From assembly GCA_037379345.1 (NCBI GenBank), contig CM074513.1, positions 33,166,885-33,230,884 of the forward strand: a stretch of 64,000 nucleotides of DNA. The letters run 5' to 3'. The position numbers and the translations under genes were made by a program. This document shows, one piece after another, positions 2,162-51,200 of this stretch. This stretch comes from Perna viridis (taxonomy: Eukaryota). Below the pieces are notes generated by a model. That model saw nothing but the letters and a program-made list of their open reading frames with translations, was not told the DNA's origin and searched no databases. The stretch's first letter is position 1; every line of letters begins with the position of its first letter.

Positions 2162-5100
2162 ATGATGATACCCACATTGTTTTTGGTTTCTTCGCACATA
2201 CTGTCCCAGGAAGATTTAGACGCCCGGACAATTGAGTAACAAAATTCTTGGCTTTTTGACCCAGTTAGGTTAAAATATATAGGCTTATCCTAGAAAAAAA
2301 TCCGAGAATATTCTTTAGCATCAAATTGATTCGGTAATGGAAGGTATAAAGTTACCTGAAAATCACCATGACGTTGACGAGTGGGGGATGTACGGTGGAC
2401 CCTCCCACCCATGGACTAATGATGATTGAGAATTTACTTTGATTTGTTCAACCATAATTATTGTGGATTAAATTAACTTCATTTATAGTTTCAATGAATT
2501 TCAGACTTTTGCCAGCGGATTTATTCCCGACGGATACATCTTACAAGGTAGGTAAGTCAAAAGAAACTTGTTGATTATGTTAGGGGTCATTCAAGGTGAA
2601 AGTTTAAAACCGGTTATTTAGTTTAACGAGTTTCACCTTTTGACATTATACGCTTTGTAATACAATTGCTGAATCCAACATAAATGGGGAGTGTTCGGAG
2701 CCAAAGTGACTGTGTTTCAAAAGATCTACACGTGAACTTCATACAATTGAAATCTACGGTATTAAGGGTCAAAGTTACAGATGATCACAAGTTGTTCTAA
2801 ATTAGAATTCAGATTCCCTTTGTTAATCATGATCGTCTGGGTGTTCAAATAGAAATGCTTCCGCTTTATTATGTTCGTTTCTATAGTGACACACACGTGT
2901 GGGACAGCCGTTTCTAACTCCAACCACAGTGGAACAAATGCTAAGATCACTATTGCGTCTGACCTGTACGTGGAGGCAAAGATAAGGTGTGCTGATTCAT
3001 TAATTTTTAATGTTGCCCGAATCAAGGACGGTAACTCCCTGACATCGGCTCGAATATTCTATACCAACGAGACTGGTGGTACAGTTGGCACTGACTGCTT
3101 CTTCTATGTAAGCATTCTTACTAATAGTAGTTATTGAAGTATATATATATATGTCCGGCAGTCGGACAAGATACTGTTGGTTGATTGGTCCATCGAGAAG
3201 TTTGTACAGCCCATTTTTGGAGTAATATAGAAACGTAATTTCCTTCTAAATACCGATTATCTTAAATGAAATTAAACCTGGCTTCGCTGATAAAAAGTCC
3301 TTTAAAATCTCGATATCTGCTGATTTTCAAGGTTAGATGTTCAAGGTTTTAAGGTCAAGACAACACAGTCTTATTTTCAGCAGCGAATCGGATGAAACGG
3401 TTCTCATCCTTCTGACCGAAAATCCAAAAGTTTTTAAGCACAATACATTGATTTGCTATTCACATTTAGGCGTTTTGCTCTTTTCCAGGGAAGGTGGAGT
3501 ACCATTAAAATATATTTTTATCAATATGTAGGAAGACCAACAATCTTTAAAAGTTGATCTATTTTTTAAATTCTTATTATATTGATACAGGTTCTTTGTA
3601 CAGGTGCATACCAGTATATTTTTTTATTCTTACACAGCATCCGAACGATGAATCCAACTTGTATACAGTAGAGATGGATATTTACTGGGGGTTGACCAAT
3701 GAATCTCTGTTGAACGACTATGAGTCCTACACCATAACCTGTACAATCGACGGCGCCGCCACGCAGCAACTAGCGGGAAAGACTGTCGATGAGTAAGCAG
3801 TTCATCTAAGGATAAGATAATGATAATGGGATTTGACCTGTTTAGTGAAGCCGGAGCAATTCTAAAAAGTGGTACCGTTACATTTCTCTTTTCATGTTAA
3901 TGAAATGAATTCATTTCAACAAAGTCAATTACTTCCGACACAATTAATCGTTCAATTTGATCATTGATCTGTAATCAATCTTATTTTGAACGCGCATCGT
4001 TTAATTTATTTCTCTAACCGAACACTTATCGATCGATCAACATCGATTAATGATCGAGGATTGAAATGACTTTTTTTCATCGAATTATATCTGGTTGCTG
4101 AATGTTTGATAAATCATTTTGTTTAGTTAATACTCATAATTTCACCACCGAACACCCTCAAATCAAACACATGAAACAATCGGTAAATAAGTATTATTAT
4201 ACCTTGTTTACAAAATACTATAAAAGATGTGTTTAGTTTCATATCCTCATTCGAATATTTACATGTAGTTTCCAAAGTGAACCTACTCTGCACTAAAAAT
4301 TGTTCAGTGGTAAAAAGTCATGAGAATTGCTAAGACAATACATTTCAATAGACGTGTGGTATTTATTTGAGAAGGCGGAAAGTTGTAAAAATACACGCTC
4401 CCTTCCACTTACTACAGGTTAAAAGTGTGCGGTGGCATTACACATTTTAATGCGTAGTTAATCGAAAAGGATGTCTGAAATACATTTCAATAGTTTTAAT
4501 AGTTTCAATAGCAGTTTTTTTTTGTAATTACACACTGTTTTATGTTGTTCCGTAGCAACCTCCTGTGTTGAGGTATACCGATATTAGCTCTTTCATAGCT
4601 TTTGAACTGCCGGAAGTGGATATAGGATTTCCGGTTTAGGGGCGTGAGTAAGATTTAACGCCGGTCTTCATGTAATTTAATAATAATTTCATATGGACAC
4701 AGTAAATTTGACATTTTCTTCACTGAAACCATGAAGAGGTGTTTTTTAGCGAAACATAAAATTAGCTACTAGGTGGTAATCAATTGCCGGAAATTTGTCT
4801 TTTGTTCAAGGAGCAAAAAAAAAAAAAAAAAAAAGAAACATTAAAACTGAAATATTTGATATTGAAAAAAAAAATGAAATATAGATAATTAATATTTAAA
4901 TACTAGTGGGATACTTATCACTGAAGATTTGGTTGGTAATGGTGGAAGTCCATATGCCAATACTGCGACGCTGAAACTGTTAGATGTCCTAGGAAGAGAA
5001 ATATCAGCGCCCTCTATCAGGATAGGGAAGAAGGTGTTCCTGGAGATGTCTATTTCTGGAGGTAACTAGGTAGAACGACAGCGGTGACTGATCCAGAAAT

Positions 5101-8100
5101 TAAAAAACGGGGATGGGGCCGCCATCTTCAGAATCTTTATTTCGATATCAAAACCACTTTATAGAGATAAAGGAGGCTTTTTCCGTTTATATTTCACTTG
5201 TAGAGTTAAGCATTTTACATATCTCCATACAAGTAACTACATATTTCTGTATGTTAACTATTTTTTTTTTTTAATAATTAACCAGGGAATTTGCGTATTT
5301 TTTGCTTATTTAGTTTTGTTCAGATCTCTCATAAAATTATTAGAGGTTAAAAGCTGAAATTTAACAAAATGGAAAAACATGCGTTACCCATGAAACTTAT
5401 TAAGCACTTTATTGAGACTGGGAGCTAAAATAGACTATACTTCAAACCCCATGACTACTTCTTGTAATGAACCATATTAACTTCAAGCTAAAATTTGACT
5501 TTTTTCCAAAATGTGTACCATTGTTAGTAAAGCCGGTTTCCCTCGATTTACTGTTTCATTCTAAATTCTTCGTATTATAACGGTGAAAATGCGAAAGGAA
5601 AATCAAAATATGACCATGATAAGTAAGTAGCATCTACCGACGTGTGTTTATGTCGGAGAATCAAGACATGGCGGAACTTTAGAATCAAAGAGAGCAATTA
5701 TATACAATTATATGGAATGCAAGCTTAGTTGACACATCGTTTGAAATTTTACGCTTCAAACAATCGTCGAATTGCAAAAATTGGGGATAAAAGGAAAGTG
5801 TGTGGATCGATTCTAAACGTGTCTAAACATAACCTTATTGTTATAATTGGTTAATATAGAACTCTACGATTTTATTTTTAAATTTACCATTCTGATTACG
5901 AAGAACCTTACATAAGCTACAACCATTCAATGAATCATGTCCTTTGGTACATGTCCATCTCAACTAGCTACATTCCTAAGTTGATAAGCTTTATAGCTCA
6001 AGTGCTACATTATCGCACAGACACCCCTGTGTCATTCAAAGCGTATAATTTCTTAGGCACCTAGTTTCAGATACACGCATATAGTAACCTAAACGCCAAA
6101 TGCTTAGAATGTAGTTTCAACAATTACGTCTGGTGCAGAAAACACTTGCCACGCACTTATAGGCACTGGAGCACATGCAGCTCTATTATCTCGACATGTG
6201 GCCAAATAGAATGATAATTACAAAAAGCAATATTACCAGGCCACAGACTGGCACCAATGCTGCGAAATAAATTATCGGAATTCTTATGCCATCGTCTAAG
6301 CAAAATTTCATTTTTATTTGTCATCTCCGGGCTTCGGTTGTCACGAGGTGATAACCGTAATACAAATACAAGATATAGCGAGTCATACATCGGGATGATT
6401 TCGGGGAATATGCTACCCTTTTGTATTAAATAAAATGCCAAAAAATGAGCGGAAAATAATACATGTAGCATGGAACCCCATTTCTTCTTGATTGGATCCA
6501 CTCCCCCTTTTTGTAAATATTTGGATCTGCCAGGGCCTGCACGCGATAGCTGAAGACAGCTCTTCAATTGGTACTCAGCATTCCTCTTTATTTCTATGGT
6601 TTTCATTTCTAGCTTAACATTAAATGGTTTATTATGCGTCTGATCTTGGATCTAAATTGATAAAAGTGCTTGATACAATTGTTGCGCCCGGATTAAGCGA
6701 CGCCCCTTATTTTCAAGGGAGTGAATATTTTTCTTTTTCTATATTGTCGATCAGAACCCTTTTTGGCCTGTTTTTAGACAAAGTACACAGCAAGAATCCG
6801 TCCATATAAAATTCAGACACTGTGTATTGTAGAAGTGATTCATGGTGTAGAAAAAACCCACTGAACTAACGATGCTTTTTTCGGTCTTAACGTGATATAT
6901 GTAATTATATAACGATAATCCTTTCTGTATTCAAATTCGTAATTTTGAGAAAACCATACGGGCAACCCGATTAAAATCTAGCCAATCAAACCAAAATAAA
7001 GAATGATAACTCTTGCAAAGTGCCGATTTCATATACATTCTAAGTATAACGACTGAATGACAAACTAAATTAGAAATAAAACTGAATTGGGTGGGTTTTT
7101 GACACGCATGAATCAAATCTTGTGTATATTATTTCGTTATTTAGGTTCTGATGCAGGACTTACGCCATATAGCTGCTATGCAGAAAATAGCGATGGTTCC
7201 AGGCGATACAAACTTTTGAAAGCTGGGTGAGTTGAAGGTATAGAACAATTCAATGCAATTGATACCAATATAGAGCCTGGCCATGAACTTTAAGGGCTTG
7301 TCCATTTCAGACTTAAGCACGCTAGATGGTGTTGATGACTATAAAATAATATGTTGCTCTGCACTGGTAATTAGAAATGTTCATTTGTATATAAAATATA
7401 GGTACATTGTCGAAAATTGAAGATATGTGATGAGGCGATGGAACGGGTAGGAAATGTGAGGCTTCGCCGAGCTATTTCCCCGTTCCAAGCCGAATGCACA
7501 TATTTTAACCGATAACCTGCTAATGTACGGATACAGCAAAAAAGAAATAACCGTATAACTTTATTCGTTTAACAAATAACCTCATTGCAGGATAAATACC
7601 GGTATACGACTTCTGGATTATCATCTTTGATATTGCTGGCATAATGAAAGGACCGGTAACATTAGCACACGAAACTATGTAAACATTTTCAACAAATAAT
7701 GTAGAAATTCCACTAGAATGAAACAAGCATGATCTATAACGGTGCACAAAACAATTTACCACTATAGAGTGGGACAAAAAATATAGCCAAACACAAAACA
7801 GTTTACTACTAAGGAGTAGGACAAATAATATAGCCAAACACAAAACAATTGTTGTTTGTGTCGTAGAATGGTCGTCTGGTACAAAATAGTATAATGCATT
7901 GTCTGCGATATGCATGGAATATTTGCCAAATATAATTGCTTTTATATGTTGTAGTTGTGGAGATGGTATAATTTTCCCCAAAAATGTTGGATTTACGACC
8001 ACAGGAACAAGTGTGAAAAGTCCGTTTTTTAAAATATTCAGGGTTACAGAAAGACTATCCAATTCAGCAAATGATCGGATATCTTTTAGTTGTTCCTTTT

Positions 8101-9714
8101 CAGCTTGTGCACAGGCATGTGATGGGGTATGTGTATACATCCATCTAGTTTAACTCTACTTTAAGAACGATTAGGTTTAATATTATTCTAAAATCTTATC
8201 AGTCTGTCATTTTCATTGTCCATAGGAAATAAACTCTGTGATAAAAGATTTGTTTTAATTTTTCGTACCTAACGACTGTGTTACTATAAGGACAAATTTA
8301 AAGTTGAATTTAAAAAAAGATGTTTTCGTAACATTTTCGACAATATCTCCTGGACAAGTTGAATATGGAAATTAATTGTATGTAACTGATAAAGAAACAA
8401 CGTGTTTTATATCTTGTCATTAAAATCTCCAGGAGGTGGGGGGCACTCCAATACTTCTTCGATAGTGGTGCCACTAGGATTTTCTAACCCCACCCTATTC
8501 AAGTATTTTTTTTTTAATGCACATCTTTTCACACACACACATGTTGTATATATATATATTATTGACATACCATATAATTATGTTTGTTTTCCACACCTGA
8601 TCACATATTTGCCCCCCCCTCCCCCGAGATAAAAATACTTAGTTTAACACAAACAATCATTAAAAAACATGATATCAATGAATTTAAGTGAGAATATATG
8701 TAATTTTATGCTATCTATAATATTTGTTTTAGTCTTCCTGTGCACTAAGACAAGTAAAACGCAGATCTTCGGGTATGTTTCATCTATTATTATCTTCAAA
8801 CAGAATTTCTTTCTGGCTTGAAAATATTTTAGTAGTGTGAAATATTAACAGCATTTCCATCTTCCGATCTTTAATATTAGGAAAAATACATCAGTTCACT
8901 CGAGGAACCACCACGATGGTCTCGTTATATTGGTAGCATGTTCACCTTGAGTGCAGGAATTCGCGGGTTTCATTCCCGACCTAGTCATACCAAAGACTTT
9001 GAAATTGTTGTCACTAGTTCTTTACCAACACAACGACTGTTGCTTCTGTGAGCTAGAACAATACGATACGGCTCAGGGTGTCGAAATAGTACTAAACATA
9101 TTATTAATGTAGTGAATTCGTTGGTGATCCTTTTATTTACAGTTCGTTTAAATTTATTCTCTTCATTGACCACTGATTGGATACATTTTTGTTACTTTTT
9201 TTATATGTATTCATTCACCAGTTTCCATAGCATATTTATCAAATTATGTTTTTCTATGTACTTCTAATATTTTGGAAGAATGTCAATACATATCACCGAG
9301 TTTATCTAATTTATCCAGCAAAGCAATTTTTAATAAGGGACATCCTTCTTGCAAATAAATGAATAACATGTTTTATGGAACTTGCTGAAAATAAAGAACT
9401 CAAATCAAAACAATTGAACATTCAAGTGATATTGTTATTTTTGCAGAGATGTACAGGTAAAATGTGATATCATTATTACAGGAAAAGAAACAACTGTTAA
9501 ATCTACTACGTTTGTTGTAAAACAGATTGAAGATGAAACTGAGAAGATATTACGAGAGTTTTCTATGGAGAGAAATTATAAGATTGCCAATGTAGTCTTG
9601 ATTGGTGTTGGACTGGCTTATTTAGTGACTTTCGTGTTGATATTTTACCAACTTTGCTGTAAACAACGACATGAAGACGAGGAAATTGTTCCATCTATGA
9701 AATATACATCATAA
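2162..9714 (+). CDS. ZP-module (vitelline envelope VEZP/VERL-like) type I membrane protein, paralog A; ~380-400 aa, 9 coding exons
   Basis: Exons: 2162-2235 (tentative), 2489 or 2505-2547, 2887-3107, 3638-3792, 4907-5061, 7145-7226, 7955-8126, 8733-8772, 9482-9714; exons 2-9 are GT-AG and phase-consistent. Translation IPDGYILQVTHTCG...YTITCTIDG...GLTPYSCYA...AGCGDGIIFPKNVGFTTTGTSVKSPFFKIFRV...FSCSFSACAQACDGSSCALRQVKRR gives 4 Cys in the ZP-N half and 6 Cys in the ZP-C half. A basic cleavage site and a C-terminal TM helix (IANVVLIGVGLAYLVTFVLIFY) follow. The GCGDG-I-F...GFTT...SPxF motif resembles abalone VERL/VEZP ZP-C as I recall it (not searched). Confidence 0.85.
8905..9100 (+). mobile_element. 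Degenerate tRNA-derived SINE (mollusc type)
   Basis: A-box-like tggtctc..tggtagc and B-box-like gggtttcattccc, followed by gtcataccaaagac and a tctgtgagctag core. A related copy lies at ~40215-40430. Confidence 0.55.
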
Positions 9715-13265: not shown

Positions 13266-14599
13266 AACGATAGGACCAGATAGATGAATGAACACATTTC
13301 ATTAAAGCACGTCCTAGATACTGACTTTAGCTTTAGCTGAACCTGAACGGCATTCCTTTACATCATTTATAAAAGGTACACAAAATCTTCATGATAAAAG
13401 TATACATGTACAAATTTTCCGAACTAACCGAACTAAAAAAATGGCAGTTACTAAAAGTATACGTGATGTACTATTACGTAAACCTTCAGATTAAACATTT
13501 AATAAAAACTAGTGTCGTGTTTCTGTTTGTTCGACTTCCTTTATTTGTTGCTTAGAGTTCTTTGGTAATTATATTTTTATAGCAGACTCGGTTGTAGTAA
13601 ATGCTGCATTTGGAACAGTTTTCTACCAAATTTTAACGGGAATGTTGCGCTTACCTCTTGGAAGCATCAAGTGAACCTGTTCATGAAATAGCGTAACTTC
13701 AGGCGTCTCTTCACTGTGCGACACTGGCAATAGTAATATTCACGAATATAGAAAGCATGTCGTTCTAGATGTACAATTCATCGATAGGTATACTTGTTTT
13801 AAATAGTAAATGGTATGTTTTTGTTTTTGTATACTCTATAATCGTTACTTATTATTTAAAATGTCCGGTTTTTTTTTCTGTTTCGATGCAATTTGAAAAA
13901 TCCAAAGGAAATCACGGAATCGAAACGGATGATTTCTTTATTTATTTTATTGTCTTTTCAGTATTAAATATCGACCTAAACGACATTCCTGTTTATAACG
14001 CTTCCCTCTTTGGCGAAGAGCAGTGCTAAAAGTCCCCATATCTTCCAACAAGTTTTTTTTCAGAAACGATTAATTCGACCCATTATTTATTGATATTGTT
14101 TATAAATATATATATTCTTGCTTACCCCTAGGGTACATATATATATTAGAGTTGATGTTTGGGTGTGCACAGCGGTTACCTCAGCCCACGTATCTAGTCA
14201 AACATCTGACTCACTGACCTAGAAACAAATATAGTGTTTTCTTTCTTCATTCAAATAATCAAAGTACACTAAAATTATATCAAAGAAACGAACAAAAACA
14301 AACAAAAAAAACCATTTCTCACATGTAAAAATTATTTCGCATCAATTCAAAAGAGCTTCTTAAGTTCAACCTTCTATCTTTCCAATTTTCATTTGATTCC
14401 ATTAAGGCGACTTATAGATAATCACAGTGGAGTGATCGAGGGAATCACACCAACCCAGTACCCACCAGAGTACACGCAAACCAGTGTTATATATGCAAAA
14501 ATGCAGTTCTGGACAAAATCAAACACAAAATACCAACTACCTTTATTTAAGTTCTTAGATGTATCGCTTCGTATATATATATACTTATATAAGGACTAG

Positions 14600-17500
14600 T
14601 CATATTAAAGCGTTGGAATTATCAGACGTTTTGCTGCATGTACAAGACCGGTCGTCTTGTTTTGCAGCAGGACAAAGACATCCAGGTCCACACTCACAAG
14701 GTTTAATGTCCCCCGAGTAATCATCAGAAGCGCAATCTGGCGAGTCAACAAGGACAGGAAGATGTACCTTGTCGGTCTGAATCACCGACACTGGACGGGG
14801 AACATCTTTACAGTCAGGCAACTTGTTGCAATTTAGCTTTTGGAAGTCGTTCTCCATTCTTAACGTGCACTGACAAGACTTGACCTTTCCTAGTTTCTCC
14901 TTTAAAATGTTAGGCAGCATTTTGCTAGTATTAACGTTTCCATCTTTGGGTCTGTCGGTACACTTACAGTTGCACTGTCTGTTGCGACTGACAAATAAAC
15001 AAAATAAAATCATTCCAGATACACAAAAGATCACGCCAATCACTGTGTAATTGATGGTAAGCGACAATTTGATTTTCTCCAAGTCCATGCATTTGTTCCA
15101 AAGAGTCAATTCAATTTTTCTAATGTCGCCTTCAATATCAATATCTGGTATTGTATTTCCAGTTTTGGCCACAAGTGGAGAAACTGAATGAAGCAGCAGG
15201 TGTTTAGTGGAAGCCGTACCAAATGTTTTATCGACATCATCTGAAATATTCAGTGTTATGTAAAAATTGGGGTTTTTTCTAACAAACACATCCAAAACTT
15301 TTCTAAAAAAATCATATTACTGAGAAACCTGTCATGGAAAACAAAAATAAATAAAATGTCAAAGGGTCAAAGGTGACAATTTCATTTTTCGGTGCTTCAC
15401 TTTGTCAAGTTTTCTGTTTCGCCACATCATTAAATGCAAAAACTTATTGTGTCTTCCTCGAATGCCAAAATTTTATATGTTACCTATTCCTTGAAGCCAA
15501 CAAAAATACTTCAATAGATGTTTATATTATAACAACAGGTGTTTTTGTAACAATTAAAATGATTTTATAAGTATTTAACTGTTGATATTAATTAGGAAGT
15601 TGATAAATGGAACATTTTATACCATTTTTATATGGAAAACAACAGATTTTTAAAAATATGTAAGAATATAATAAAATTGTATTATTGAAAATTTGTAAAA
15701 ATATAATAAACTTTCAACTTTTTTTTTACTTGTTAATTTTAAGAAATGTATATTTATATACAAAAATATTAATAATAAACATTATTTCAAACTCTGAACT
15801 TTATATTAATGTTTTTCATTCTGTTTTAACTAAATAATAAGAGTACAGTGACATGCCAACCGTGAGATGACAACTTTACAGTTTGCAGACTCAGCATCAT
15901 ATCTTTTACACTTGTAATGAACTGTTAAATGTGAAAAGTGTTTTGTATGAACTATTCATCAATTGTTATCAGATCACATAATATGTAGTGCTTTTTGACA
16001 ATTTGCTAAATGTTTGCTTATGTTATATGTTTTGTTTTTAGTTTGTTCTGTGTGCAAATAAATAATATATTCTGATTTTTTTCTACTTTTTATGCCTCAT
16101 GTGATATCAAATTATAGTAATAATAGTCTAGTCCTTACAAAACAACCAAGACCAAACACAATATTTAAGTACTATGGACCATTTGTAAACAAAATAGTGT
16201 GATATTATTACATATACCAAAAACAAAACTATTATGAACTAATGAACAAAATAAACAAAGATATAAACCACTTAGAGCATAAATGGATCTTCTGTATTGT
16301 GTAGTAATTACAAATATTTCATTAAATTGAACAAGAACCTCATACTTAGTAACTATTCTATTACTAGTATTCCTACAATGAATGATAGATTGATATACCT
16401 TCAAGTTATTGGACTATAAAAATAATTCAAAAGTCTATACATGTACATGTATGTGATTTTGTGAAGAAATGCTTCAGTAAAAACAGCAAAAAAAAAAGAT
16501 TTTAACAACTGGAATAACTAAGGATGTTGGCATCCTGGGAATAAATTCATAAGGAGCTCTAGTTAAATAAATAGAATCACCAGTACCTTCTTCGGCTGCA
16601 GATCGTTTACGTCTACTTGGAAGGGAACAACTGGACTAAAATGAAATAAAACATTTTAATACTTTTTTTTAAATCAAAATGAAATTCAGCCTTACTGAAT
16701 GTAAATTCTGATTACTTTATTTTTTATTTTGTTTTAGTTAAATATACTAGCAGTTAACACATTATCTGAGTCTTGAGCTTCAGATCCTTTTACTATTGAT
16801 GTAAGAAAATTAGTCATTCATGGGGTAGACATGTGAGTGTTCAGAGAAGGTTTTTGTTGGATCTTTTGGCACCTGATAATCACCTCCAGTTCAGCAGGTA
16901 GAACTGTTTTTATGGCAATCTATCTGTTTTTTTAATCCTTTTTTGTTTTTTTTCTTATTATATTACAAAAATCACAGAATTTTTCACTTTTACATTTGCA
17001 TACTAAATACATGTTGATACCACTTACCCCATCGCAAGTATTGTTACAAGTTGTGAAGGAACATTTGTATTTCACAGCTGCTGTGTTCCCTGTGGATTCG
17101 ATTAGTTTGAAGGCTTTAAAAAAGGGACTTTTGGCTTTTGTACCAGTTGTGATAAATCCAGCTGTTTTCTTAAATATAATTCCATCACCACAGCTGAAAT
17201 ATAAAGGCTGGATCAAAGACATAAATCTTTCAACAGAATCTAGAGTTTTGTTTATATAAAAAGTATTTTGTGATTATAATTCTATCAAAGTCACAATTGA
17301 GCCGAAAACCAACCACAACATTGGATTATCTTAGATTTTTTGAATGTCTGCATTTTTTTAATAAATGCTTACTTCAAAGCTGTACATTCTTCTTTGAATA
17401 ATAGATGATACTAATATCAGATACAATTTAATTCTATATTTACCCAGCATTTAGAATTTTATAAGATTTCGTTCCATCGCTGTTCTGGGCAATGCAGTCA

Positions 17501-20500
17501 TATGGAGTAAGTCCTTGTTCTGTGCCTATAAAGGGTTAACATAGCACTATCTATGTTCATACCAATGTAAATGATTATAATATAAATGATATAAACAAAA
17601 AGAATGTGACCAAATGAATTTGAGATTCGTGAAATCTGAATCAAGTTAGTTAAAATTCTAAGGTACATTATATTGATATTTCTTAAACAGCTTGGTTAAC
17701 AATAAACGCGTGTTTTAAACATTCACACCATTTTTATTACAAACAGCTTGTGTAAAATTGTGTTTAACTTTCGACGAAGACCCGCAAGCTTGTCGTTTTG
17801 TCACAGTCCTTCCCAGTATTGCAGGCTGCATGGTGCAATCTTTGTAGTAAATTCATCACATCACATGATGTTCTCGTTGTATCGTGAAATGTCCTTTCAT
17901 CTCTTTGCTTTACTAGATTCAGTACATGGAAGAACATTTCTGAAATGAGCCTCACATGAGAAACGTGTACCATATAACATTGTGTATTGGCATACTCCCT
18001 TTTGGTTTACCAGCACGACACTGATGCACATATAGATTAAAAGATTTTAACAAAATGTTTAAAAGCTTTTTTATACAATAAAGGGGCTACTACATGAATA
18101 TGATAAGGAATATTATCCATTGTAGTATTTATACTGCGCTCACAAGCTCATTGTGCAATAAAAATAACTAAGTAAACGATATCACTCAAGACAATATACA
18201 TGTAACAACCCTACATAATTTACCTTACCTCCAGAAATAGAAAGCTGGAGAAATATTTTCTTTCCCATAGTGACTTTTGTTCCATCAATAACTTTGTCTT
18301 GAATGTCCATGATGTTCAACTGTCTAGAGCCACGGTACTCCGCTCCAAGATTGTGTACAAACCCACTTGTTATAGCCATGTGACTGTCAAAAAAATAAAT
18401 AATACTCATAGTGATTATATGGGAACCAAAAGACGAACATATGAATAAAATAATGAACGAAAAAAATTGTTACAACAGTTGATTGAGTAAAGTTATACCT
18501 TATAATAGATCGACAAGAAAAGACCAACTAAATGGATATTTATAAATATTTCGTTGAAGAAAAATATGTAATAATAAATAATAATGAAAGTGACCAATAT
18601 ACGAATCCGTCACCAACTTATACACTAGAAATCAGTATGGTATACAATCTGGTACGACTGAAGCATCTTGACAATATTATCTGGAAGTTGTGTTTGAGAA
18701 CTTGTACCTTTCTACTAACAAAAAAAATTGTCTTCCAACGCTATGCACCTGGTTTTATTCCGAAAGCTTTGTGTATATAGTAACACTTTTGCAGATATTA
18801 ACTTCTAACAATTGAACTTTGAAAAAAAAGACGATTTACGCAAGACAATGTTGTATGAATGCTTTATAACTTACTTATCATCAATATTTTTGGCACCGAC
18901 TTGTTGGTTACTGTATCCGTCTGTTGTGCAAGAGAGAGTATAGGTTTCATAATCCTCCATCAAACTGGCGTTTTTAAATCCCCACCACACTTCAAGTTTT
19001 ACAACGTACAAGTTTGACTCACCGTTTGGGTGCTGAAATTTAAGTTGGCGAATTATAATTCTATCATAGTGCTTAGATATTTTGTTAATAATCTAGTACG
19101 TAGAAACTAAAAACAAACAGCAATGCTCCCATTCCTCCACTTTATGAAGCTAACCTTTTGATATCCAAATTGATTTGGATCAAAATCTCAAAAAGAGGTT
19201 GTACAGTGGTAATAAACAATAAATTTCATTAAATTTCGTTCAGATATGTAGAATGAGTTACAGATAAGAGATGGATCCCCGCGTCGGGAAATGATGAAGG
19301 CCATGTTGGCTGAAGAGGAAGTTTTAACGAAACGATCCACTAGTTGACCTTCAAAATCAGTGAAATATGACGACGCTGAACTCTTAGCGAGTCCTCAAAA
19401 TCAACAAAATGAACCAATCAACATTAATAATGTAGTACGTGCCATACCAACCAACCAAATAAAAGACAACCACCTAACAATTCAATGCATTATGCCAAGA
19501 CCTGCATCCGTAATCATTATAAATTGGTCAGCACATATATGTTTAAATACTAAGCAAGAGTGGGTTACAAATTAGCACTAATGACAGCATATACTGCTGT
19601 ATTGTACTAAGGATAACATAAGCAGCTGGCAAACTGGCTAAGTTTTACATACTTATAAAATGGAAGAAAAATAATTTTCTCAAATTTGTCCGTAAGAAGA
19701 GATGCTCATCATCAATTTGTACATAAACACACACACACACAGTGCACGGTTTGAATAATATTTATCAAATTAGTTCTAGAGTCACATATCGCACTAAAGT
19801 ACTACCATAAGCGTGAAGGACGAACGTACGGACGGAGTCGAGCTTTCAGGTGAAATACAATAGACTTGCGCGTGTTGATTGGAAACTCAGCCCTACCAAT
19901 CACGAAAAGAAGAAAATCAGATCTATTGGTAACAAGGCTTCCTCAGCATGGTACATCTAAATTGTATTTTCAAAGCTTGTGAAATAAAGTTGCACGCCTT
20001 GTCTTGCTAGGAGTACTCCCACTCAAAGGTACAAAATCCTTACCAAATTATCCGAAAGAAAAAACACAGTAGCACCAAAATAGATATACAGAAAACATGA
20101 CCTTAACGAGAAAACAGGAAACAGAGACGTCCACATTCACAATATAAACAACGGAATTAAATATAATTACATATAAAAGCTGTAGATAAAAAATACTACA
20201 CCACTTGCAAATACGCCCCTCCCCCCCCCAAAAAAAAAAGATTAACATTAGCATCAGCGTCATATTCCTTAGATATTGCGAGTTGATAAAATCATTCGGC
20301 GGATTGAGAAATCTTGTATCATCTATGTGACAGAAACTACATATTGGTCAGTCAAATTGAGATAGTACCAATAAAGGTTGAACACACCCCTGTTTCAGAA
20401 GTTTATAAGTGTTTGACAGTATCTTCGATCTACTACTAGCTCAGAAAGACGTATGAACTACATGCATGATAGTAACATTTCAACTGTAAAGTGGTTAGAT

Positions 20501-22387
20501 TTTATAAATAGCCACTTATAAATTGAAAGTTTACTAACTGGAATTCATAATCATATACATTTGTCATATTACTTTCGATTTGAAATGTTATGTGTCATCT
20601 TTACATGGCCTTATACTTAAGGTCTCAAAGGTGTATCCGTTGTTGCAATCATGGTAGCAGTAGCCTAGGGCTGGCTTTCACTCTCCTTTGATTAAATACC
20701 CGTTTCATTGAAAATCTGTTAGAAGCTGCAAATCACTTAATATTTGATACAATCTTTATACAGGTGTCGGTGCCATATATTGTAAGTGTATTCCAGGCTT
20801 GGCTACAACAAATTCCTACTTGACGACTACAGGTTTTTATTTTGACAATAAACTAAATGAAGGGTGTTGTTGTGGTACTGGGCATATTTCTCATTTACAG
20901 CCATTTATCAATGAAATCATCTTGGTGTTTTTACATCTCTACCTTTGTAATAAAAAAGGGTTGCATTGTAAATTGCTGATGCCAAAATATTTCTTGATTT
21001 AACAATTTAATCATAAAACAAGTCATGCAATGCAAATTAGTAGTGGTTATTGACTGTTCGTTCATTTCACTTACAAAGAAGAAACAGTCCGTGCCTGTAA
21101 CCCCGTTCTTGTCTCCTGTGTAGAATAGATTTGTCGTCACTTCTGTGTTCGTGTCATTAATTGGGGGCATATCAACAGTAACTGGAACTCCTCCATTATT
21201 ACACGTGAGCTTCCCGAAAGCATGTAAATCTGACTTGATAGTGACGTTAGCGTCCAGAAATGTCCCACCCGCACCCGGTGCTCCACAGTTGTGTGTCACT
21301 ACAAAGACGTGCAGCATTGAAAGCCAGTTTTTATGTATATATACGTAATAAGAATTCAAGTTATAGATTGGAACCTATGTAAATGTATGTAGTTCATTGA
21401 TAGCGGAAGTAAGCGATTTCCTGCGAAATTATATATAACTTGTCCATATTACTGATATTGGCCGCAGACAAAACCTGATGTTAGTTTTTTGTTTTTTTTT
21501 CTGAAAAACGATTGATCAGTAAATATGTATACAACAAAAGTGTGGTCAGAAATTGGTAGTGATTTGAACTATTATGAACTTCATGTGATAGCAACACCTT
21601 CCATGTCAACCCATGTGTCATAAAATATTGTTTCCTTCGATCCTATACCAGACTTGTGGTTCGGAATTTTTAGACTTTCCGACATATAATTCGGAAAAAG
21701 TTAATAAGTAACTTAATCGAAAAGGAACGTATTCATATAATTATACACAATTATACACTAAGACTTACCTTTTAGAATATATCCATCAGGAATGGAGAAA
21801 CACAACTGACAAATAAAAATACAGCGTGCAGTAATTAAAACCAACCATAAACGCGAACTAACCGAAGATGCTCAATCTTGAGAAATAAAACGATGTACAG
21901 TCTATTTCCAGAAAACTTTTGGCCGTTTTGATCGCAACAGTTTATGTCAACAGGTTCTCATTCATATACCATGCACTTATTTCAAATGTTTTGTTTCCTG
22001 GTGATAATGGTTGTGAGAAAATATTTTAAACTTATCGGAGATAAACTCAAGCACGCCTAAGCTTTTCGAGCGTTTGTTTCAAGACCTAAATGTCTTTTAT
22101 TTAATGATTTAACTTTAAGTCAAGATCTATGACATTTAATGTAGAATAAATATTTCCAAATTATTGTCCTGAATTTTGACCTCAAATGAGCCTATAAAAT
22201 AATTTAAAACATGTTAAATATATGTTTACATTTTAGCAATTGAATACGCAAATAGTATATATAGTGAAACAATAAGTTTATAAATTATGTGTATTCTAAT
22301 TAACAGCCATGCCTTTGTATGAAAAGTTATTGAATGTTAGCTTACCTGCACCAACGACAGTACAATCCCAGGAACGATCAGATTCAT
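14600..22387 (-). CDS. ZP-module (vitelline envelope VEZP/VERL-like) type I membrane protein, paralog B, with long Cys-rich cytoplasmic tail; ~517 aa, 9 coding exons
   Basis: Exons (minus): 22387-22346, 21805-21769, 21298-21075, 19032-18875, 18383-18229, 17525-17444, 17193-17028, 16635-16587 (or 16581), 15240-14600; all GT-AG and phase-consistent. Signal peptide MNLIVPGIVLSLVQLCFS, then IPDGYILKVTHNCG... with the same Cys pattern as paralog A. It has a canonical furin site RRKR, a TM helix (YTVIGVIFCVSGMILFCLFV) and a 128-aa tail. Confidence 0.88.
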
Positions 22388-23097: not shown

Positions 23098-26000
23098 TCA
23101 GTCTAAACAGAATGGACCTGAGTGCTGAATAAAATGTTGTATTGTTTTAAAGTTGTCATCATTGCTGGTGTTATCAAGTATTGCGCTACTAAATAAAATC
23201 ATTGTTATTCGATCTTCACCAGTATCCGGAAGATTGTCTATGTATAATCTCCGTTGTTCTACATACAAAGGACATTGTAGAAAGAAATGAATACTATCCT
23301 CAGTAGGCCAGCCACAGGTGCATTTCTGGTCAGGCACCAAACCCAATCTGAACAGATCAGCTTTGAGTGTCCTACTCATGTGACGTAGTCTTGTATGCAA
23401 AATATTAAGCTTTCGAATTCCATTATAATAATATGAAGGTGGTTTGAACACGAAATTCTGATTTCTCAGTAATTGTTTGAAATTATCTAAGGTTGGCACT
23501 TGTCTCAATCGTAGGTCTAAGCTATTCCACAATCGTGTAGCAGATGGAAAGATATGCTGGTACCTTACTATTGTGTACTATATGGAATAGACACAGTACG
23601 TCTTCGTCGACGATCTGCTAATGTCTCCCAACCAGTTTCAAGATATAAAGATTCAATACTGGCATATCTTGGAAGACCGGTTACAATTTTGACAGCTTCA
23701 TTTTGTATTTTATCTAATTTATTTGCACATTCTGCAGAACACCCATCCCAGAGTTCACAAAAATATTCCAGTAATAGTAAAATATAAGTATGATATATCT
23801 TATTCAAATTTGATCTGTTCAGAGTGAACTTGAGCGTTCGCAGAACACCTAACTGTCTTGTTGCATTCAGACATATAATCAATATGGGTTGACCACTTAC
23901 AATCCGAAAACAATACTACTCCTAAATGCTTGTGAGTATCAACCATCTCTACTCGTTAAATCATTAAATTAAATAGTGATTGGTTGTTGTATTTCTTGAT
24001 TTGTAAGATATACAGCCTTGGTTTTGGCAGGGTTGAAGTCTACCCTCCAGTCTTCAGACCATTTTTGTAGTTTATCAAGGTCAGAGTTAATGGAATGCTC
24101 TATTGTTAAATGATTCTGAATGACGAACAGCCTAGTGAGGTATCGTCAGCAAATAATATAGTAAAACGATTCAAATCATCAGATATATCATTTATAAAGA
24201 TACAAAATATTAAGGGTCCAAGAACAGAACCTTGCGGAACTCCCGCGTTGATGAAAGACTCAGATGACATAGAATTGTTAACAAAGACTTTCTGTCGTCT
24301 TTTATATAAAAAGCTTTGAAGCCATAAAATTACATTATGGTTAATTCCATATGATCTAAGCTTTACTATTAACCCCATATGCCATACCTTATCAAATGCC
24401 TTCGAAATATCAATGAACACTACACAAGAATTATATCTTATGATAAATTCCAGTCAGTTAATGGACTGTGCTGTGCCCAGCCATGAAACCTGACTGAAAT
24501 TTATATAACAATGAGTTTGAAATTAGATAGTTGTAAAGGTACTTATATACTACTCTCTCAAAAACCTTTCTGACGCAGTTTAATAACGCAATCGGTCGAT
24601 AATTAGAAAGCAGAGACTTCTCCCCCTTTTTAAAGCAAGGCATAACTGAGGCAAGCTTCCAAAACTCAGGAAACACCTCTATCGATAATGATTTATTAAA
24701 GAGTATATGTAACGGGACCGATATACTATAAGCGGTGTACTTGAGCATATGGTGACTAATACAATCATGTTTGGTCAGTTCGAGGTGCAAATTCTGGAGT
24801 TGCTCGATTTGAAACTTTATTTGTAGAAATCGAACAAAAATATCTGTTAAGGAGGTCAGACTTGAATTCGTCATCAACGATAAGTTCGTTTCTAGTTGAA
24901 TCGTGAAGTGCTGGTATATGGGTAAATGATCTCGAGCCTTTCATGATCTTCTTAACTAAACCCCAGAATGTCTTTGGGCTAGAACTGGCATTAAGCATGT
25001 CATCTACGCTTAAGAAAAAAATGTTCCTTAGCGTATTTGATCATGTTAGTGACCTTATTACGTTGCCTTTTGTAATTTTGAATAGCAATATTAGTTTTGC
25101 TGTTTATCGCCTTGTCGAGTAATCGGTCATGTTTTCTGATCTCGCTACGCAGTTCAGAGTTAAACCACGGTTTATTGTCTGGGCGAATAGTTACCTCCTT
25201 TGACGGTATATGTCGTTTATATCTCAATAATTTTGTTGGAGGATTCAGTACACATCAGATCGATGTTGTTACCCATATTATTGAAATATTCCACCCAATC
25301 GATCGAGTTGATAATATCGTTAATCGCATTAAAATCTCCGTGCATGTATAACCACACGGTCCGCTTGGTGCATGAATTATTAAGTCTCTGAGGTATCTCA
25401 AATGCAATTGTGTAGCTTGATGATCACTGATAGATTTGTCAACATCAACGACTTCAGCAAGCTGCACATCACAGTTAGGAGATACTAGAACTGGGTCTAG
25501 AAGAGTTCCCATTAACATCATAGCGCATTGCCTCATTTATATAATTAGGAATGTTATAGACCTCAATGATGTCCTTCAATATATTCTTATTCTCCGATAA
25601 TAAGTTCACGTTAAGATCACCAGGGATTACGCGATTTGGCGTGTAATTCAAGGCCTATTCAATTGATATTTGGAAGTGTTCCCAAAAGGGGTTTGTAGCT
25701 CCTTGTGTTCGATAGACAGCACATAGTAGCAACTTAAAACGAGGAAAGCAAACTTCGAGCCATATAAGCTCTCCGTTCGGAAATTCTAGATCGTCACAAT
25801 GAATTACTGTAAGCTCATCCGCAATATATATTAAGACACCGTCCCATGGCAATTTCGATCTTTGTGGGTAAGGTTGTTTGAAAAACCGGTCATATGAATA
25901 TCATCAGATGGGATTGTTACATCTAAATGGGTTTCAGTAATACATAAGATCGATGCTCCATTAGCTAGGCTTCCAACGTAAGAAAGCTTGTACCTTCAGC

Positions 26001-27682: not shown

Positions 27683-28698
27683 TCAATAAAAGGTCATCTT
27701 TATGTACCAAGGCCAACTTGTTGTGGGAAATAAAATAATTGTTTTGTCCAATTCGTACTGGTATCGGATGAGTATTTTCTGACTGTTTTCCAACGTTTTT
27801 ACAAAGATGCGTCCGTCATTTGTCCAGAAGGAGGACAGTTCATGATTACGCCTGGCAAGATTGCAAAGAAAAATGATGCTCTGTCTGTATTTGGTAAGGT
27901 CTTCAGTAATTATTGCGCCTTCTGGATTCCCTTTGAACTCTTTCTTTTTACTGTAGAGAGGGTTTTTAACTTTCCAGTTACGGAAACGGCATATGATTTG
28001 GGCCTTACCTCGTCGGTCAATTTCACCAATGATGTGGGATCTAAAAATATCATCTTCTGAAATTTGATCACCAAGCATTTGGTTACAAATGCTAACTTTT
28101 TTGTTGTCTGTTTCTTGAAACTCATGTTGTAGCAGTGGTACATTGTGGAACCTCAGTGAGTTGCGGCGACCATATTGTTCAAGCACTTCAATTTGATCTT
28201 CTAGTTTGTAAGCATAATCTGTGAGGCTTTGATTTTGATCCTCAACCTGCTCAATAACTTTAGATAATTCTGTGATACGCTCATCTTGTTTTACTAATTT
28301 ATTTTCGGATTTTGACACTGCATCGCTTACAGCTTTTCCTGTGATTGGCTCAATTATATCCGTTACAACTGCTTCTATGGCATCTGCCATTTTAGCTACC
28401 AATGAGTTTATGAATTTTGGGCTTGAAAACACTTCTTTGAGGGTGGTATTTATTAATCCACTCGTGTTACACTTTTCCCCTATAATGGTTTGAATGTAAC
28501 CGGTTCATGTGATGAGCCTGGCTGACTTACACGGGACAGGTCCGGAGCCGAGCTACCCAACGGGGATGGTAATGGATGACGGTGTGGTGGACTATCAACA
28601 TTTTGGCTCAGTGCTTGCCGTTTACGGGGGTTGTTAGTTCCATCACTCTTATTGCTTGGTGTGTTTGGTATATCAGTCTTTGATACGTTGGATGACAT
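27683..28698 (-). pseudogene. LINE ORF1 (coiled coil + L1/CR1-type RRM/CTD RNA-binding protein), one frameshift near 28440-28480
   Basis: Coiled-coil stretch followed by LEQYGRRNSLRFHNVP, IICRF, IITEDLT and WTNDGRIFVK motifs. The N-terminal 72-aa piece is in another frame. Confidence 0.8.
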
Positions 28699-30525: not shown

Positions 30526-31099
30526 AGATAGTACTTTTTTTAATGAAACAAATGTTTATTTCTTTGACCACTCTTCAGAGTCTCGTTGTCAAACTTTTAC
30601 AATGCCACAAACTAAGAAAACGCCATGATCAAAGATTTGATATACCATATAAAAGATCTTGTTGCGAGCACCGCGAAGCGGTGTGAGGTGTTAAGGTTTC
30701 CCAATATACTAACGAAAAAAGTCATGTTCCGGAAGTAACGAAATGACTGTCCTTATGGAGAAAATTCATCGCTTCCTTAAACCAAACAAATAAAAATACA
30801 TAGGTTAAGATTAAGTTTCAGTAAAAATAAATTCATCTTTAATGATAGTTTCGAGTCTTTCTCTATTTTTTTACTTATTGAAAGTAGTCAATGTAATGTT
30901 TTTAAAAAGTTCGGGATATACGTAGATGTACATACGAGTATCTCCGTTGTTCCACCGTGGCTGTTGTCAAGAACCTAACCCGCCATGGGGAAAAATATAA
31001 CTCCGATTATATTATCAAAATCGAAGCATAGCTTTTCTAAGATAGGAAAGGCAACCATTTTTTTGTTTGGACTTTGCAGCTGTCGTCTGTTTACGTCAC

Positions 31100-32621
31100 A
31101 TCTGTCTGTGGACATCTATAAAGGGGTTCCACAGGGGTCAATTTCGGGACCGGTCCTTTTTAATATCTTTATTAACGATATATTTCAATTTATTTCGAAA
31201 AGTAACTTATATAACTATGCTGATGACAATACTTATCATATAGCAGCAATGATCTACAAAGTACTGTAAACACTCTGGAACTGGAGAGTAGTATTTTAAT
31301 CAAATGGTTCTCAGACAATCACATGAAAACCATCCTGACAAGTTTCAGGGTATTGCGATTGGCAGTAAGACTCAAAAAGAGAACATTAGTTTTAATTTAG
31401 ATGAAAATGATATCCTCTGAGAATGAGGTAAATCTACTTGGTATAACATTTGATTTTAAATTGAACTTTAAGAGCCATATCTCTAATGTATGTAAGGCAT
31501 CACAACAATTAAATGTATTAAAAAGAATTGGAAATCATCTCAGTAAATTTGGTAAACTTGCATTATTCTTTTAAACTAGCAAATTTCAACTTTGTCCATT
31601 AGTATGGCATTTTTGTAATGAAAGCTGTACAAAAAGTTTCAAGAAAGAGCTTTGTAAACGCTTTATTTATAATGATGATAAAAGTACATATGAAGAGCTG
31701 TTAATAAAGTCTAAGATGCCATCCTTAAGAGTTAGACGACTGAGATTTTTAGCTATACATTTATATAAAATAATAAACAAACTTATATCCTGTATACTTA
31801 TATGATATGATAACTGTTAAAGAAAGTTCTTACTCTTTTAGGTACACAAACTTGGTGAACATACCAAGAGTAAACACAACCAGGTATGGCCTGCACTCTG
31901 TCAGTTATGGGGCAGCTAAACTGTGGAACCAACTTCCAAATGAATTAAGAGGGGACATGGGACTTGATCAAATTAAAAGTTTGATAAATAAGTGGGAGGG
32001 GGGGATGTTCTTGCCAATAGTTTGGCTTACCCAAGTGACAGGTGCAACATCATCTCCTTAAAATCTTTCATTTATTATAATAATCCTGGCATGTTAATTT
32101 TAATGCTTTTAGCTGCTTAGAAGCATCTGCTTTTAAATTTAGTCTGCATTGCTTTTATTATAATGGTTTTTTATGTGCTTGAATACTTGCATGTTATTTA
32201 TATTTGTATGTCATGTTGCTTTAAGTTTTTGTGTATGCATTTCTTGTGTTTATTTATGTCGATTTTAAAAGCTGTACAGGGGCGTAGCTAGGCCTGTTTC
32301 AGTTGTACGGAAAATTACGGCGAGGTCTTGGGGGGGGGGGTCGCTCAAGGCCCCAATGAGTCCGACAAGGCAAAGCCCTGAGGGAAACTCCTGAATTTTA
32401 ACGATTTTGGAGCCAGTTTTTCAGAGCCTATACTACGTTCATGGTATGCATATGTGATAAATAACCTTTATTTCATCTTTAAAATGCGTGTTTTTATTTT
32501 TGTTACTTTTCCCGAAAGTACGCAAGTGCGTATTTGCATATAGGCAGCTACGCCCCTGTCTACAGAGCTTATGTTTCTTGTTTGATATATCGACTTTAAT
32601 TAAGTTTACTTGACTAGACTT
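31100..32621 (+). mobile_element. 5'-truncated LINE (L2/Crack/CR1 group) RT fragment with 3' stem-loop and (acttg)-like tail
   Basis: KGVPQGSISGPVLFNIFINDIF...YNYADDN, then frameshifted HPDKFQ and VNIPRVNTTRYGLHSVSYGAAKLWNQLP. Ends in tttacttgactagactt. Confidence 0.85.
32277..32558. mobile_element. MITE nested in the LINE 3' end
   Basis: Perfect 13-bp TIRs CAGGGGCGTAGCT / AGCTACGCCCCTG. Flanks TGTA / TCTA look like a 4-bp TSD with one mismatch. Confidence 0.85.
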
Positions 32622-48200: not shown

Positions 48201-51200
48201 ATTGTTTTTGTACTGAATTATCATAATGTCTGTCTTATCTTTTTGTTTGTTAGAAACTAAATACTTCACATTTACTGTTGATTGTGCTCTGAACTTGATG
48301 TATCAGATTTAAACATGTTTCAACAGTAAACCAAAAGAATACATGAACTTTGATTAGCCTATGAGAATTGGAGAGGACAATACTGTGAAATTTGAATATG
48401 ACACTGTTCTCATGGTCAGCAAGTAAAGTAAAAAAAAATGATGATCAGGTCAACAGAACAAACAAGGACTTTTGGATTAATAATTTAAAATGATACACTT
48501 GATTTACTGTAGAAATAAATAATAAAGTATAACATTCTGTGATATCTTACTTGACAGGTGGCGATGACTTACCTGTTGACTTCATGTCTGATGAATCTGA
48601 GGAAGAGGAAGAATTTGTTGGGTTTTTCACCAACGATTCTGACTCAGATATGTCAGACAATCACATGGGCAGTGAGGAGTTAGATCATGGCTTCTCTAAT
48701 GAGGACAAGAGGAAAAATATACTGCAAACTATTGAGGAAAGAAGTAATGCTAGCGACAGTTCACAAAACACTGACAACAAGTCATCACCTAGACCTTGCA
48801 TCAAACCTGATCCCAGTTCAAAGGTTAATCCATGGTTGAAATCAGTTGACCGTGACAATCTAGCTCATTTATCATCAGAGCTGTTTTCATCTTCTATGAG
48901 CTTTTTAGGGCAGAATTTTAAATTTTCTTCACAAGCTGACTCATCTTTCGAGAAAGACATAGAGGAATATGAGACATGTAAAGAGGTCATACAGGGATGG
49001 AAGCATGTTTCTGTTCCTCCAGGTAAGGTTATCAGGTCAAAGTAAAAAATCTTAAAAGTATGTTTCTATCTTTACTGCTGCATTGCATTATTTTTATATT
49101 TTTTTTTATTGAAAACTGTACATTTGTTAGTTTGAAAACATCGAGTACCGGTACCTTATCCCGGTTCATTAACATTAATAGCAATAATATCAAAATATAC
49201 ACAAATGTTAGTATTTGTTAGTACAGACATGATTTTCAATAATAATATTGACACACATCACAACAGTATATCAAAGAAAAAAACCACAGATAGATAAGTC
49301 TAGAGCAATAAAAATGTAATTTATTAACAAACATACAGATTTGAAAGCAGTTTGTTTAATTGAAAAAAAATTAGATAATTAGGATTTGGGACAAAATTAA
49401 AAAACCACATGAAAGAGAGAAAAAAAAATTAATAATAAAAAAAAAAACAAGATTTTTTTGTTTCCCTGGTAAATTTCTGAATCTATCTGTTGGCCATTGT
49501 ACATATGTTATTTATTTGTTTCATCATTTAGAATGAAATCTAAGTATATATAAATTAGTTTTCATAATATAACAGTGAAAATATTCCACAATTCATTAAA
49601 TTGCTCTAGTTTGTTATTTCTGACAGCAATAGATTTTTCAATGTTATATAAATCTTTGACAATGTTTTTAAATGCTTGTAAAGATAACTGTTTCTAAAGT
49701 ATTTACAATTTTATATGAATTGTTTAATTTTGAGAAAGAAAAGATTAAAAACTAGACTTCTTCTGCCTCTAGAAGTATCTGCCAACAAAAAATTCTTTTT
49801 AGTAAAGGGGATGCTGATATCATTCGATATAAGCCAAAAATCAATTTCCAGGATAAAATTCTGAACTTTTTCACAGTTCCAAAATAAATGTTCTATAGTC
49901 TCAACCTCTTCATCACAAAAAGTACAATTTGCAGTATCTGTAATTTGTATTCTAAAAAGATATTTATTTGTTGCAATTATGTAATGATTTATTCTAAATT
50001 GTAACCATTGGAGTTTAGTGTTTTTTCGTCACTAAAAATGGAAGTTTAAAAATATCCTTCCATTCTTGATCATTAATATCCAATATGTCCCCCCATTTTT
50101 GTTGTCCACAAGGCACACAATTATTTTTTATCAACACTGAATACATATCTTTTGTGCCTTTTTTACTCTTCATAAACAATTTAATATAATTCAGACAGAA
50201 TGGACATACAACATTATTATCATTGTACACAAAAGATCTTTTTGTCTGTCTTAGTGCAGATATTATACTTCATAGTATCAATATTAATAGCAAATTTCTG
50301 CTGAAAAAATCTTAAAAGTATGTTTCTATCTTTACTGCTGCATTGCATTATGGAATGAAGATAACTTAGGCAAAAAAATAATAATAGTCTTTTTCCCTGC
50401 TACCAGAAAGAAAACAGTAAGGTAAATAGGTAGGGAAATTATTTTATTTTTCAAAAATATTTTACATTGAGATAATCAGGGAACAATTTAGACTTTAACA
50501 GTGCTTGAGCCATAATGGCCGTAAATGTTAAGGGTAGACACAAAAAAACTAGCGGAGGTAGTGTAGCAGAAAACAGGCGTATTATTTTTGATGCCTTATC
50601 ATTTTGGGTCCAAATTATCAATTGTATGATAATTTTTCAAATTTTTATCATTTTAACACTTCAGATTAATTTATATATATTATGTTATCTGCAGGATTTG
50701 ATTCCTCGTCAGAAGCCCATCATGTAGCGGAGATAACTAACAAGCTTGCTAACTTTGTTATTGAGACTGACACAGAAGCTAGTATCATGCCCACTGATGC
50801 AGGTTTGTTCATAATGTTGATAAGGAATACTGAATTTTTTGTACTATTAGTCAATATTTTTAGCAAGTTGTCTGCTTCGACTTATGTAAGGATTTTTCAA
50901 GAAAAAATATTAACCATATTTTTCCATGTATACAGCACACTTTTTTTCAACTTTTTTTTGTTCCGGGAGGGGGTGCATGGTATACACCAAAACAATGAGT
51001 TTCTAAATTTTTTTTTGGAGACATAATTTTCGAGGTCTGTAATTTTTGGGAATCAGAACCAAAGTCATCAACAAAAGACAACATTGATCCATTTTGTATT
51101 TTTTAGAACAGTTTTATGTGAAATAAAGTTTTACTGCTATTTAATAATTATTTTATCTATAAAGGCCATTTTCTTTTATTTCATAGTTTGTACGAAGAAC

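Follow-up and report, generated by a model that had tools for sequence, protein, structure and literature searches.

ZP proteins are usually described as having a short cytoplasmic tail (PMC7155028, cited here, like the other sources marked "in part", from excerpts); in the same excerpts the short tails of the precursors steer trafficking, and zinc acts on the coat from the outside, after fertilisation. The precursors are cut at a furin site, and their transmembrane (TM) helix and tail are needed for incorporation and for separate trafficking (PMC7155028, PMC8005149, both in part). VEZP is a mollusc-wide family (PMC9290575, in part) whose type I precursors are cleaved ahead of the TM (10.64898/2026.07.29.741504, in part); in Mytilus edulis gonad, a VEZP transcript has been reported in testis (PMC3144882, in part).

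Cysteine-rich cytosolic segments are known from other settings. In CD4 and CD8, a CxCP motif in a single-pass tail binds Zn and forms zinc clasps (PMC12198760, in part), and in the long C-terminal extension of the Arabidopsis Zn pump HMA4, dispersed di-Cys motifs bind Zn at nanomolar affinity (PMC6255694, in part). Mollusc metallothioneins (MTs) are mostly shorter than 100 aa, with 15-30% Cys in alpha (12 Cys), beta1, beta2 or beta3 (9 Cys) and gamma (10 Cys) domains; bivalve MTs have 66-78 aa and 26.9-32% Cys, in 12- and 9-Cys domains (Calatayud et al., PMC7826182, in part).

The locus considered here, gene B, lies in a 64,000-nucleotide stretch of Perna viridis DNA (the window). Its product departs from the usual ZP description in a cytoplasmic tail of 128 aa; a short tail is the customary description of VEZP/VERL-like ZP proteins, not a family-defining one. 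The tail is a real, transcribed, unusually long Cys-rich variant in a known ZP family, with a putative function. The open-access listings and abstracts searched, a coverage outside which abalone VEZP tails fall, describe no ZP or VEZP protein with a Cys-rich tail; in the available parts of two papers, the terms "cytoplasmic tail" and "zinc" (PMC13361971) and "vitelline" (PMC8892766) are absent. Mytilus orthologue proteins are present in databases without comment on the tail.

Structure and family of gene B

Gene B comprises nine exons (22387-14600, minus strand, as are all its features below) with canonical GT-AG introns, and encodes 517 aa. The GT-AG model begins with exon 1 (22346..22387), which holds the start ATG and a signal-peptide-like segment (hydropathy 1.99, residues 1-19), and exon 2 (21769..21805), homologous to an exon of paralogue A. 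Exon 3 (21075..21298), part of the ZP-N region, matches Mytilus P0001 at 64%; exons 4 (18875..19032) and 5 (18229..18383) follow in the gene model, the first matching VERL_C (PF25272) at E=2e-7 and the second weakly (E=0.14). Exon 6 (17444..17525) is spliced to exon 7 at 17444>17193 in three of four mapped runs, and exon 7 (17028..17193; the ZP-C end, VERL_C E=3e-20) to exon 8 at 17028>16635 in all four; VERL_C is above cut-off on exons 4 and 7. Exon 8 (16587..16635; gene model and transcript reads) contains the consensus furin site RRKR (16603..16614), where cleavage would be expected, and the RxxR pattern is invariant in 26 family members (R297 and R300 of the alignment). The last exon (14600..15240; gene model and transcripts) encodes the linker, a single TM helix (residues 370-388; 14990..15046; hydropathy 2.68), which is the highest-pLDDT helix in the model, the tail (14603..14986) and the stop. 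Searches at both the protein and the DNA level found one copy of this exon in the genome.

The nearest relatives of B are Mytilus proteins named VERL-like, and its Mytilus orthologues match VERL_C at E~1e-58, with PF00100 (ZP-C) above cut-off. Foldseek, run with a structure predicted for the M. edulis orthologue (mean pLDDT 55.6; below 50 in the tail), returned uromodulin, ZP3/ZP1, ZPD and abalone VERL repeats, at best E=9e-7 and with low TM-scores. B has the VEZP/VERL-like traits of a signal peptide (by hydropathy only), a consensus furin site and a single C-terminal TM; the molluscan VEZP/VERL-like proteins of M. californianus (XP_052100314.1), M. coruscus (CAC5420309.1) and M. edulis (XP_071166562.1) share with it the signal, single ZP module, RxxR, linker and one TM. 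By eye only, TASTKHLL after the furin site of B resembles Mytilus TDSAKYQI, where an external hydrophobic patch would be expected, in a region with pLDDT below 50. Judged from its sequence, the product is a VERL_C/ZP-module membrane precursor and likely an egg-coat subunit. One M. coruscus VERL_C protein, P0007 (CAC5401630.1), is labelled PICALM at source and looks misannotated.

Paralogue A (2505..9714, plus strand; eight exons found, first exon not found) lies tail to tail with B and is 46% identical to it over 287 aa. Its tail of 21 aa, with CC next to the TM, agrees with the original prediction that it ends about 20 aa past the membrane. At 9440-9449, the last exon of A stays in frame only if the acceptor is placed two bases beyond the first AG (…gcagag|). 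Eleven exon-7 copies of VERL_C genes were found genome-wide, and three loci carry an inverted pair of such genes: the window and G000:C13 683564-698232, both tail to tail, and G000:C12 31513440-31529632, head to head.

The window has several other features. Broken pieces of LINE-type reverse transcriptase (RVT_1, zf-RVT) lie at 23098-25040 (minus), about 700 bp upstream of the B start codon, at 30979-31269 (plus) and at 49711-50028 (minus). An ORF of 273 codons at 27683-28504 (minus), with only a sub-threshold GCD14 match, resembles a LINE ORF1 coiled-coil protein, and a 170-codon acidic, Ser-rich ORF at 48533-49045 (plus) has no Pfam match. Arrays of 55/56-bp minisatellites with strong GC skew occupy 52036-53497 and 53797-54496. 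A 63-bp tandem array at 55965-59684 (58 copies, 93% matches) contains a 921-codon open frame on the plus strand with a His/Cys-containing repeat; it is probably a satellite, open by chance.

Composition and transcription of the tail

The tail had been predicted to hold 14 Cys in 128 aa after the TM, mostly as CxC, and translation of 14603-14986 agrees: the Cys are at positions 5, 7, 9, 38, 40, 53, 59, 85, 97, 99, 103, 105, 115 and 117, forming six CxC pairs, with 11 of the 14 in CxC context. Hydropathy gives one TM helix, with five K/R in the 15 residues after it and two before; the tail is predicted to face the cytosol, as had been supposed. At least 14 Cys in 128 codons would be expected with a probability of 0.0003 against the window's six-frame background, and at least six CxC, given the tail composition, with a probability of 0.0007. 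Among 20000 base shuffles of the tail, none reached 14 Cys and seven kept an open frame. GC content is 45% in the tail, 42% in the ZP exons and 25% in intron 8. Aromatic residues are limited to one Phe and one Tyr, with no Trp, in the 128 aa, and the M. californianus tail has none.

Neither the tail, the last exon nor the last 36 aa of B matched a Pfam family at E<=10, and the whole last exon has no homologue among longer proteins. A single-sequence model of B predicts no fold for the tail (low confidence; pLDDT below 50, mainly coil). Short imperfect DNA repeats are present in the tail region, and internal CxC repeats are suggestive only, with p values of 0.03, 0.08 and 0.39 in three tests. 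A tandem duplication that copied linker, TM and tail together, the second TM then decaying, was rejected (protein p=0.48, DNA p>=0.47; TM-remnant test p 0.57-1.0), and a squash trypsin-inhibitor match (E=0.5) and Atlas matches to NB, TMEM52, stannin and M2 (scores <=0.80) were both taken as chance.

The stretch is contained in 20 of 24 listed sequencing runs, four of which (X1, X10, X21, X22) were mapped on 14100-17600. Three of the four (X22, X1, X10) have the splice joint 16587>15240 into the last exon. Contigs from X1 (1739 nt) and X10 (1720 nt) cover exons 6-9, run through the tail and past the stop, and end at 14540, beside an AATAAA poly(A) signal (14542..14547), and at 14586, respectively; none of the listed runs containing the stretch was recorded as RNA, and the spliced joints show an RNA origin for both of these. 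In the raw RNA run X22, reads fall on the tail and two of them cross the joint; X21, for which 29 reads mapped, including single reads over two upstream joints, has no read on the last exon. Depth is low in both raw RNA runs. The last exon, for which the original prediction had looked to RNA for confirmation, is thus upheld by the joint and by contigs spanning the tail to beyond the stop, and the idea that transcripts end or are spliced before the tail is contradicted by the spliced contigs that include it.

These data also bear on whether the tail could be an annotation artefact or a recent read-through into a 3' UTR. The whole last exon found no homologue except the same gene among 1.84 billion representatives, as an artefact might; the spliced full-length contigs with an open tail refute this at the transcript level, the GC content is coding-like and the frame open, and a Mytilus-like cluster lies at the far end of the tail, which argues that the extra length is an insertion and not read-through. 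An artefact is scarcely credible.

The cluster shared with Mytilus

Orthologues were reached via the ZP exons; searches with the whole last exon yielded the same gene only. B is 61-66% identical to a tail-bearing Mytilus clade and 42-50% identical to other mussel paralogues, and groups with that clade, from five Mytilus species, with support of 96/94 in a tree without Haliotis and Lottia; in a first tree including these long outgroups, its position was unresolved. It is also the best of the 11 genomic exon-7 copies for P0004 (75%, versus 53% for the next). A search of this genome with P0027 found no match, the last exon of B being too diverged for that search, and two metagenome scans found no mussel locus, so that the orthologue tails compared with B are from Mytilus only.

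Tails differ in size across the family: that of B has 128 aa and 14 Cys, those of the Mytilus orthologues have 30-33 aa and 4-6 Cys, and those of other paralogues 10-20 aa and 0-2 Cys. All 11 clade sequences, which come from five named species and include two isoform pairs, each from one gene, have at least one CxCP. The motif occurs once in B, once or twice in each of the 11 orthologues and in none of 16 other family tails, 15 of which lack any Cys beyond the one at the TM end. Of the nine other paralogues in the genome, six have a readable candidate tail, in each case short and without Cys; the tails of the other three were not found. Outside the clade of B, P0044 and P0021 (ENA) show alternative C-termini of one sequence. 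The tail of one of them has two Cys (CDQRC), a hint that tail Cys may arise repeatedly in the VERL_C family.

The conserved part of the B tail is a cluster of six Cys in 21 aa, CECGPGCLCP-x8-CTC (14636..14698), which aligns to Mytilus ECVPGCKCP..CPC; B ECGPGCLCP and Mytilus ECVPGCKCP have the common core EC-x-PGC-x-CP. The B cluster is the only match in the genome to the pattern CxC-x-PG-CxC. Its spacing, CxC-x3-CxC-x9-CxC, is unlike that of a typical Mytilus clade tail, C-x3-CxC-x5-CxC-x2-C. In shuffle tests, the B-Mytilus cluster similarity has p values of 0.002-0.03 in six of seven tails (M. trossulus 0.20); with Cys positions fixed, these weaken to 0.01-0.03 in five of seven (P0001 0.13, M. 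trossulus 0.53), and because of this the case for homology of the two clusters, as read from sequence, is only modest. The membrane-near CNCKC (14960..14974), which may be S-acylated or represent a second module copy, aligns weakly to the Mytilus module (p 0.02-0.08). The CQC pair at 14867..14875, in the lineage-specific insert, has no counterpart in Mytilus tails, and eight of the 14 B-tail Cys have no clear one.

The Mytilus tails are short and match only the last cluster of B, and so the conserved unit is, on the alignments, a cluster of about 20 residues in one orthologue group. The extra ~85 residues in B are a lineage-specific expansion and, by the model, probably disordered. The Cys conservation by which the original prediction was to be judged holds in part: the cluster is kept in Mytilus, but only the last ~20 residues of the tail are matched, and only three cluster Cys are invariant across all orthologues.

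Another possibility is that the tail is weakly constrained, an ordinary sorting tail that has drifted and expanded, its Cys having no specific job. Length varies from 33 to 128 aa, and the similarity of linker plus TM between B and Mytilus falls short of significance (p 0.08). Two of the six tail Cys are gone in M. trossulus, and two M. galloprovincialis-type sequences have Cys>Ser changes; no fold is predicted; and of three read variants in the B tail, one is silent and two are non-synonymous (P77S, P96L), with none at Cys, a number too small to test. Across the deepest Mytilus split sampled, however, M. californianus and M. edulis are identical at 30 of 33 tail positions and at 26 of 43 linker positions (Fisher p=0.003; ZP module 225 of 276, p=0.23 against the tail), the motif is common to two genera, and the CxC enrichment noted above also speaks against drift. 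We consider weak constraint a distinctly unlikely account of the tail.

Metal binding, acylation and the role of the tail

The original prediction saw a metallothionein-like domain, and the likeness is local. CECGPGCLC of B is identical at six of nine positions to CKCAPGCSC, the C-terminus of Mytilus MTs, and this part of the prediction stood; the part that did not was a 14-Cys MT domain, the alpha, beta1, beta2, beta3 and gamma MT patterns matching neither B nor any of 27 other tails. Nor did the proposed profile comparison bear the domain out, Pfam, PDB and Atlas giving no MT match for the B tail with tools that are weak on short Cys-rich queries; the PF00131 profile found no MT gene in this genome and none in controls either, and is hence uninformative. 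Overall, the tail has 11% Cys over 128 aa and at most 6 Cys per 30 aa, reaching 29% only inside 21 aa; the Mytilus clade tails have 13-18%. MTs are poor in aromatic residues or lack them, and the B tail shares this trait. Like MT10/MT20 (alpha/beta1), B has CxC pairs, one [CxC]x3[CxC] element, few aromatics and a cytosolic setting; unlike them, its Cys are not invariant, and the tail is part of a 517-aa membrane protein (PMC7826182, in part). To judge from sequence, four Cys and Pro-Gly can converge on such a likeness, capture of the cluster from an MT exon finds no support, and the B tail is not a metallothionein. It may nevertheless bind metal in the manner of MT fragments.

The stronger form of this idea is a membrane-tethered, MT-like buffer, in which the stub left after furin cleavage would store several Zn, Cu or Cd ions and link envelope secretion to metal handling. 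Fourteen Cys could in principle bind three or four divalent ions, and the motif shared with the Mytilus MT end, the near-absence of aromatic residues and the nanomolar Zn binding of dispersed di-Cys motifs in the HMA4 tail (PMC6255694, in part) are in keeping with it. Against it are a Cys content well under the 26.9-32% of bivalve MTs, the thin spread of Cys, the unmatched MT patterns and searches, and the eight Cys with no clear Mytilus counterpart. We regard such a buffer as improbable, with a slender chance of being correct, and the link that the original prediction drew between envelope secretion and bulk metal handling has no support.

A further possibility is that the tail is multiply palmitoylated, its Cys serving as S-acylation or redox sites that control how the precursor or stub partitions in the membrane and how fast it turns over, with no physiological metal. 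The whole family has a Cys where the TM meets the cytosol (YSC in all 27 tails read, the tails having been cut at that motif; CC in paralogue A), Cys number differs between species, and the Cys sit among basic residues and prolines; acylation and Zn binding compete on one CD4 tail (PMC12198760, in part). However, the conserved cluster in B is about 100 residues from the membrane, and the paralogues manage with one TM-end Cys. S-acylation does not require CxC or CxCP spacing, and here that spacing is preserved. Palmitoylation as the whole explanation is unlikely, if well worth keeping in view; palmitoylation of the membrane-near Cys is itself likely, and acylation there is compatible with all the readings.

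The reading that we tentatively prefer, at somewhat below an even chance, is that the conserved cluster is a small Zn-thiolate/CxCP module acting as a putative sorting or interaction tag and not as a metal store. Thiol sets of this kind have precedent as tetrahedral Zn sites or Zn2Cys6 pairs. It is established for ZP proteins that cleavage at the furin site frees the ZP module, and the TM and tail of B would guide trafficking and incorporation. The 4-6 thiols in ~20 cytosolic residues would most plausibly bind Zn, as one tetrahedral site or as a Zn2Cys6 pair, and the cluster likely holds one or two zinc ions. Zinc might be bound within one tail, or in a CxCP clasp with a second tail or a partner, in the style of CD4/CD8-Lck; the TM-end Cys would be S-acylated; and the disordered, lineage-specific insert, with its further CxC pairs, may add weak sites.

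Two described systems offer partial parallels. The CD4/CD8alpha-Lck zinc clasp likewise has CxCP in a type I cytoplasmic tail with a potentially acylated Cys near the TM, but B has neither homology to it nor a known CxxC partner, making this an analogy only (PMC12198760, in part). Like the HMA4 extension, the tail of B is long and cytosolic, has scattered Cys pairs and belongs to a membrane protein; HMA4, however, has CC motifs, is a Zn pump and has measured binding, whereas B has CxC motifs, is a matrix precursor and is known from sequence (PMC6255694, in part).

Most speculative is the suggestion, to which we give a small chance of being right, of an egg-coat subunit with a cytosolic zinc switch: a Zn-bridged CxCP clasp would track oocyte free zinc and set when the coat precursor is sorted, released by furin or anchored to microvilli. 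In this lineage, the Cys would have been multiplied into a membrane-tethered multi-zinc tail.

The Mytilus version of the cluster, a 20-residue peptide with natural Cys-loss alleles, makes these ideas cheap to test. If the cluster binds no metal, the tail would simply be an unusual one. On the cytosolic side of one coat subunit, a conserved Cys cluster would let zinc or S-acylation act on coat secretion from within the oocyte, and might also, we infer, offer a possible target for Cd and Cu in animals used for pollution monitoring.
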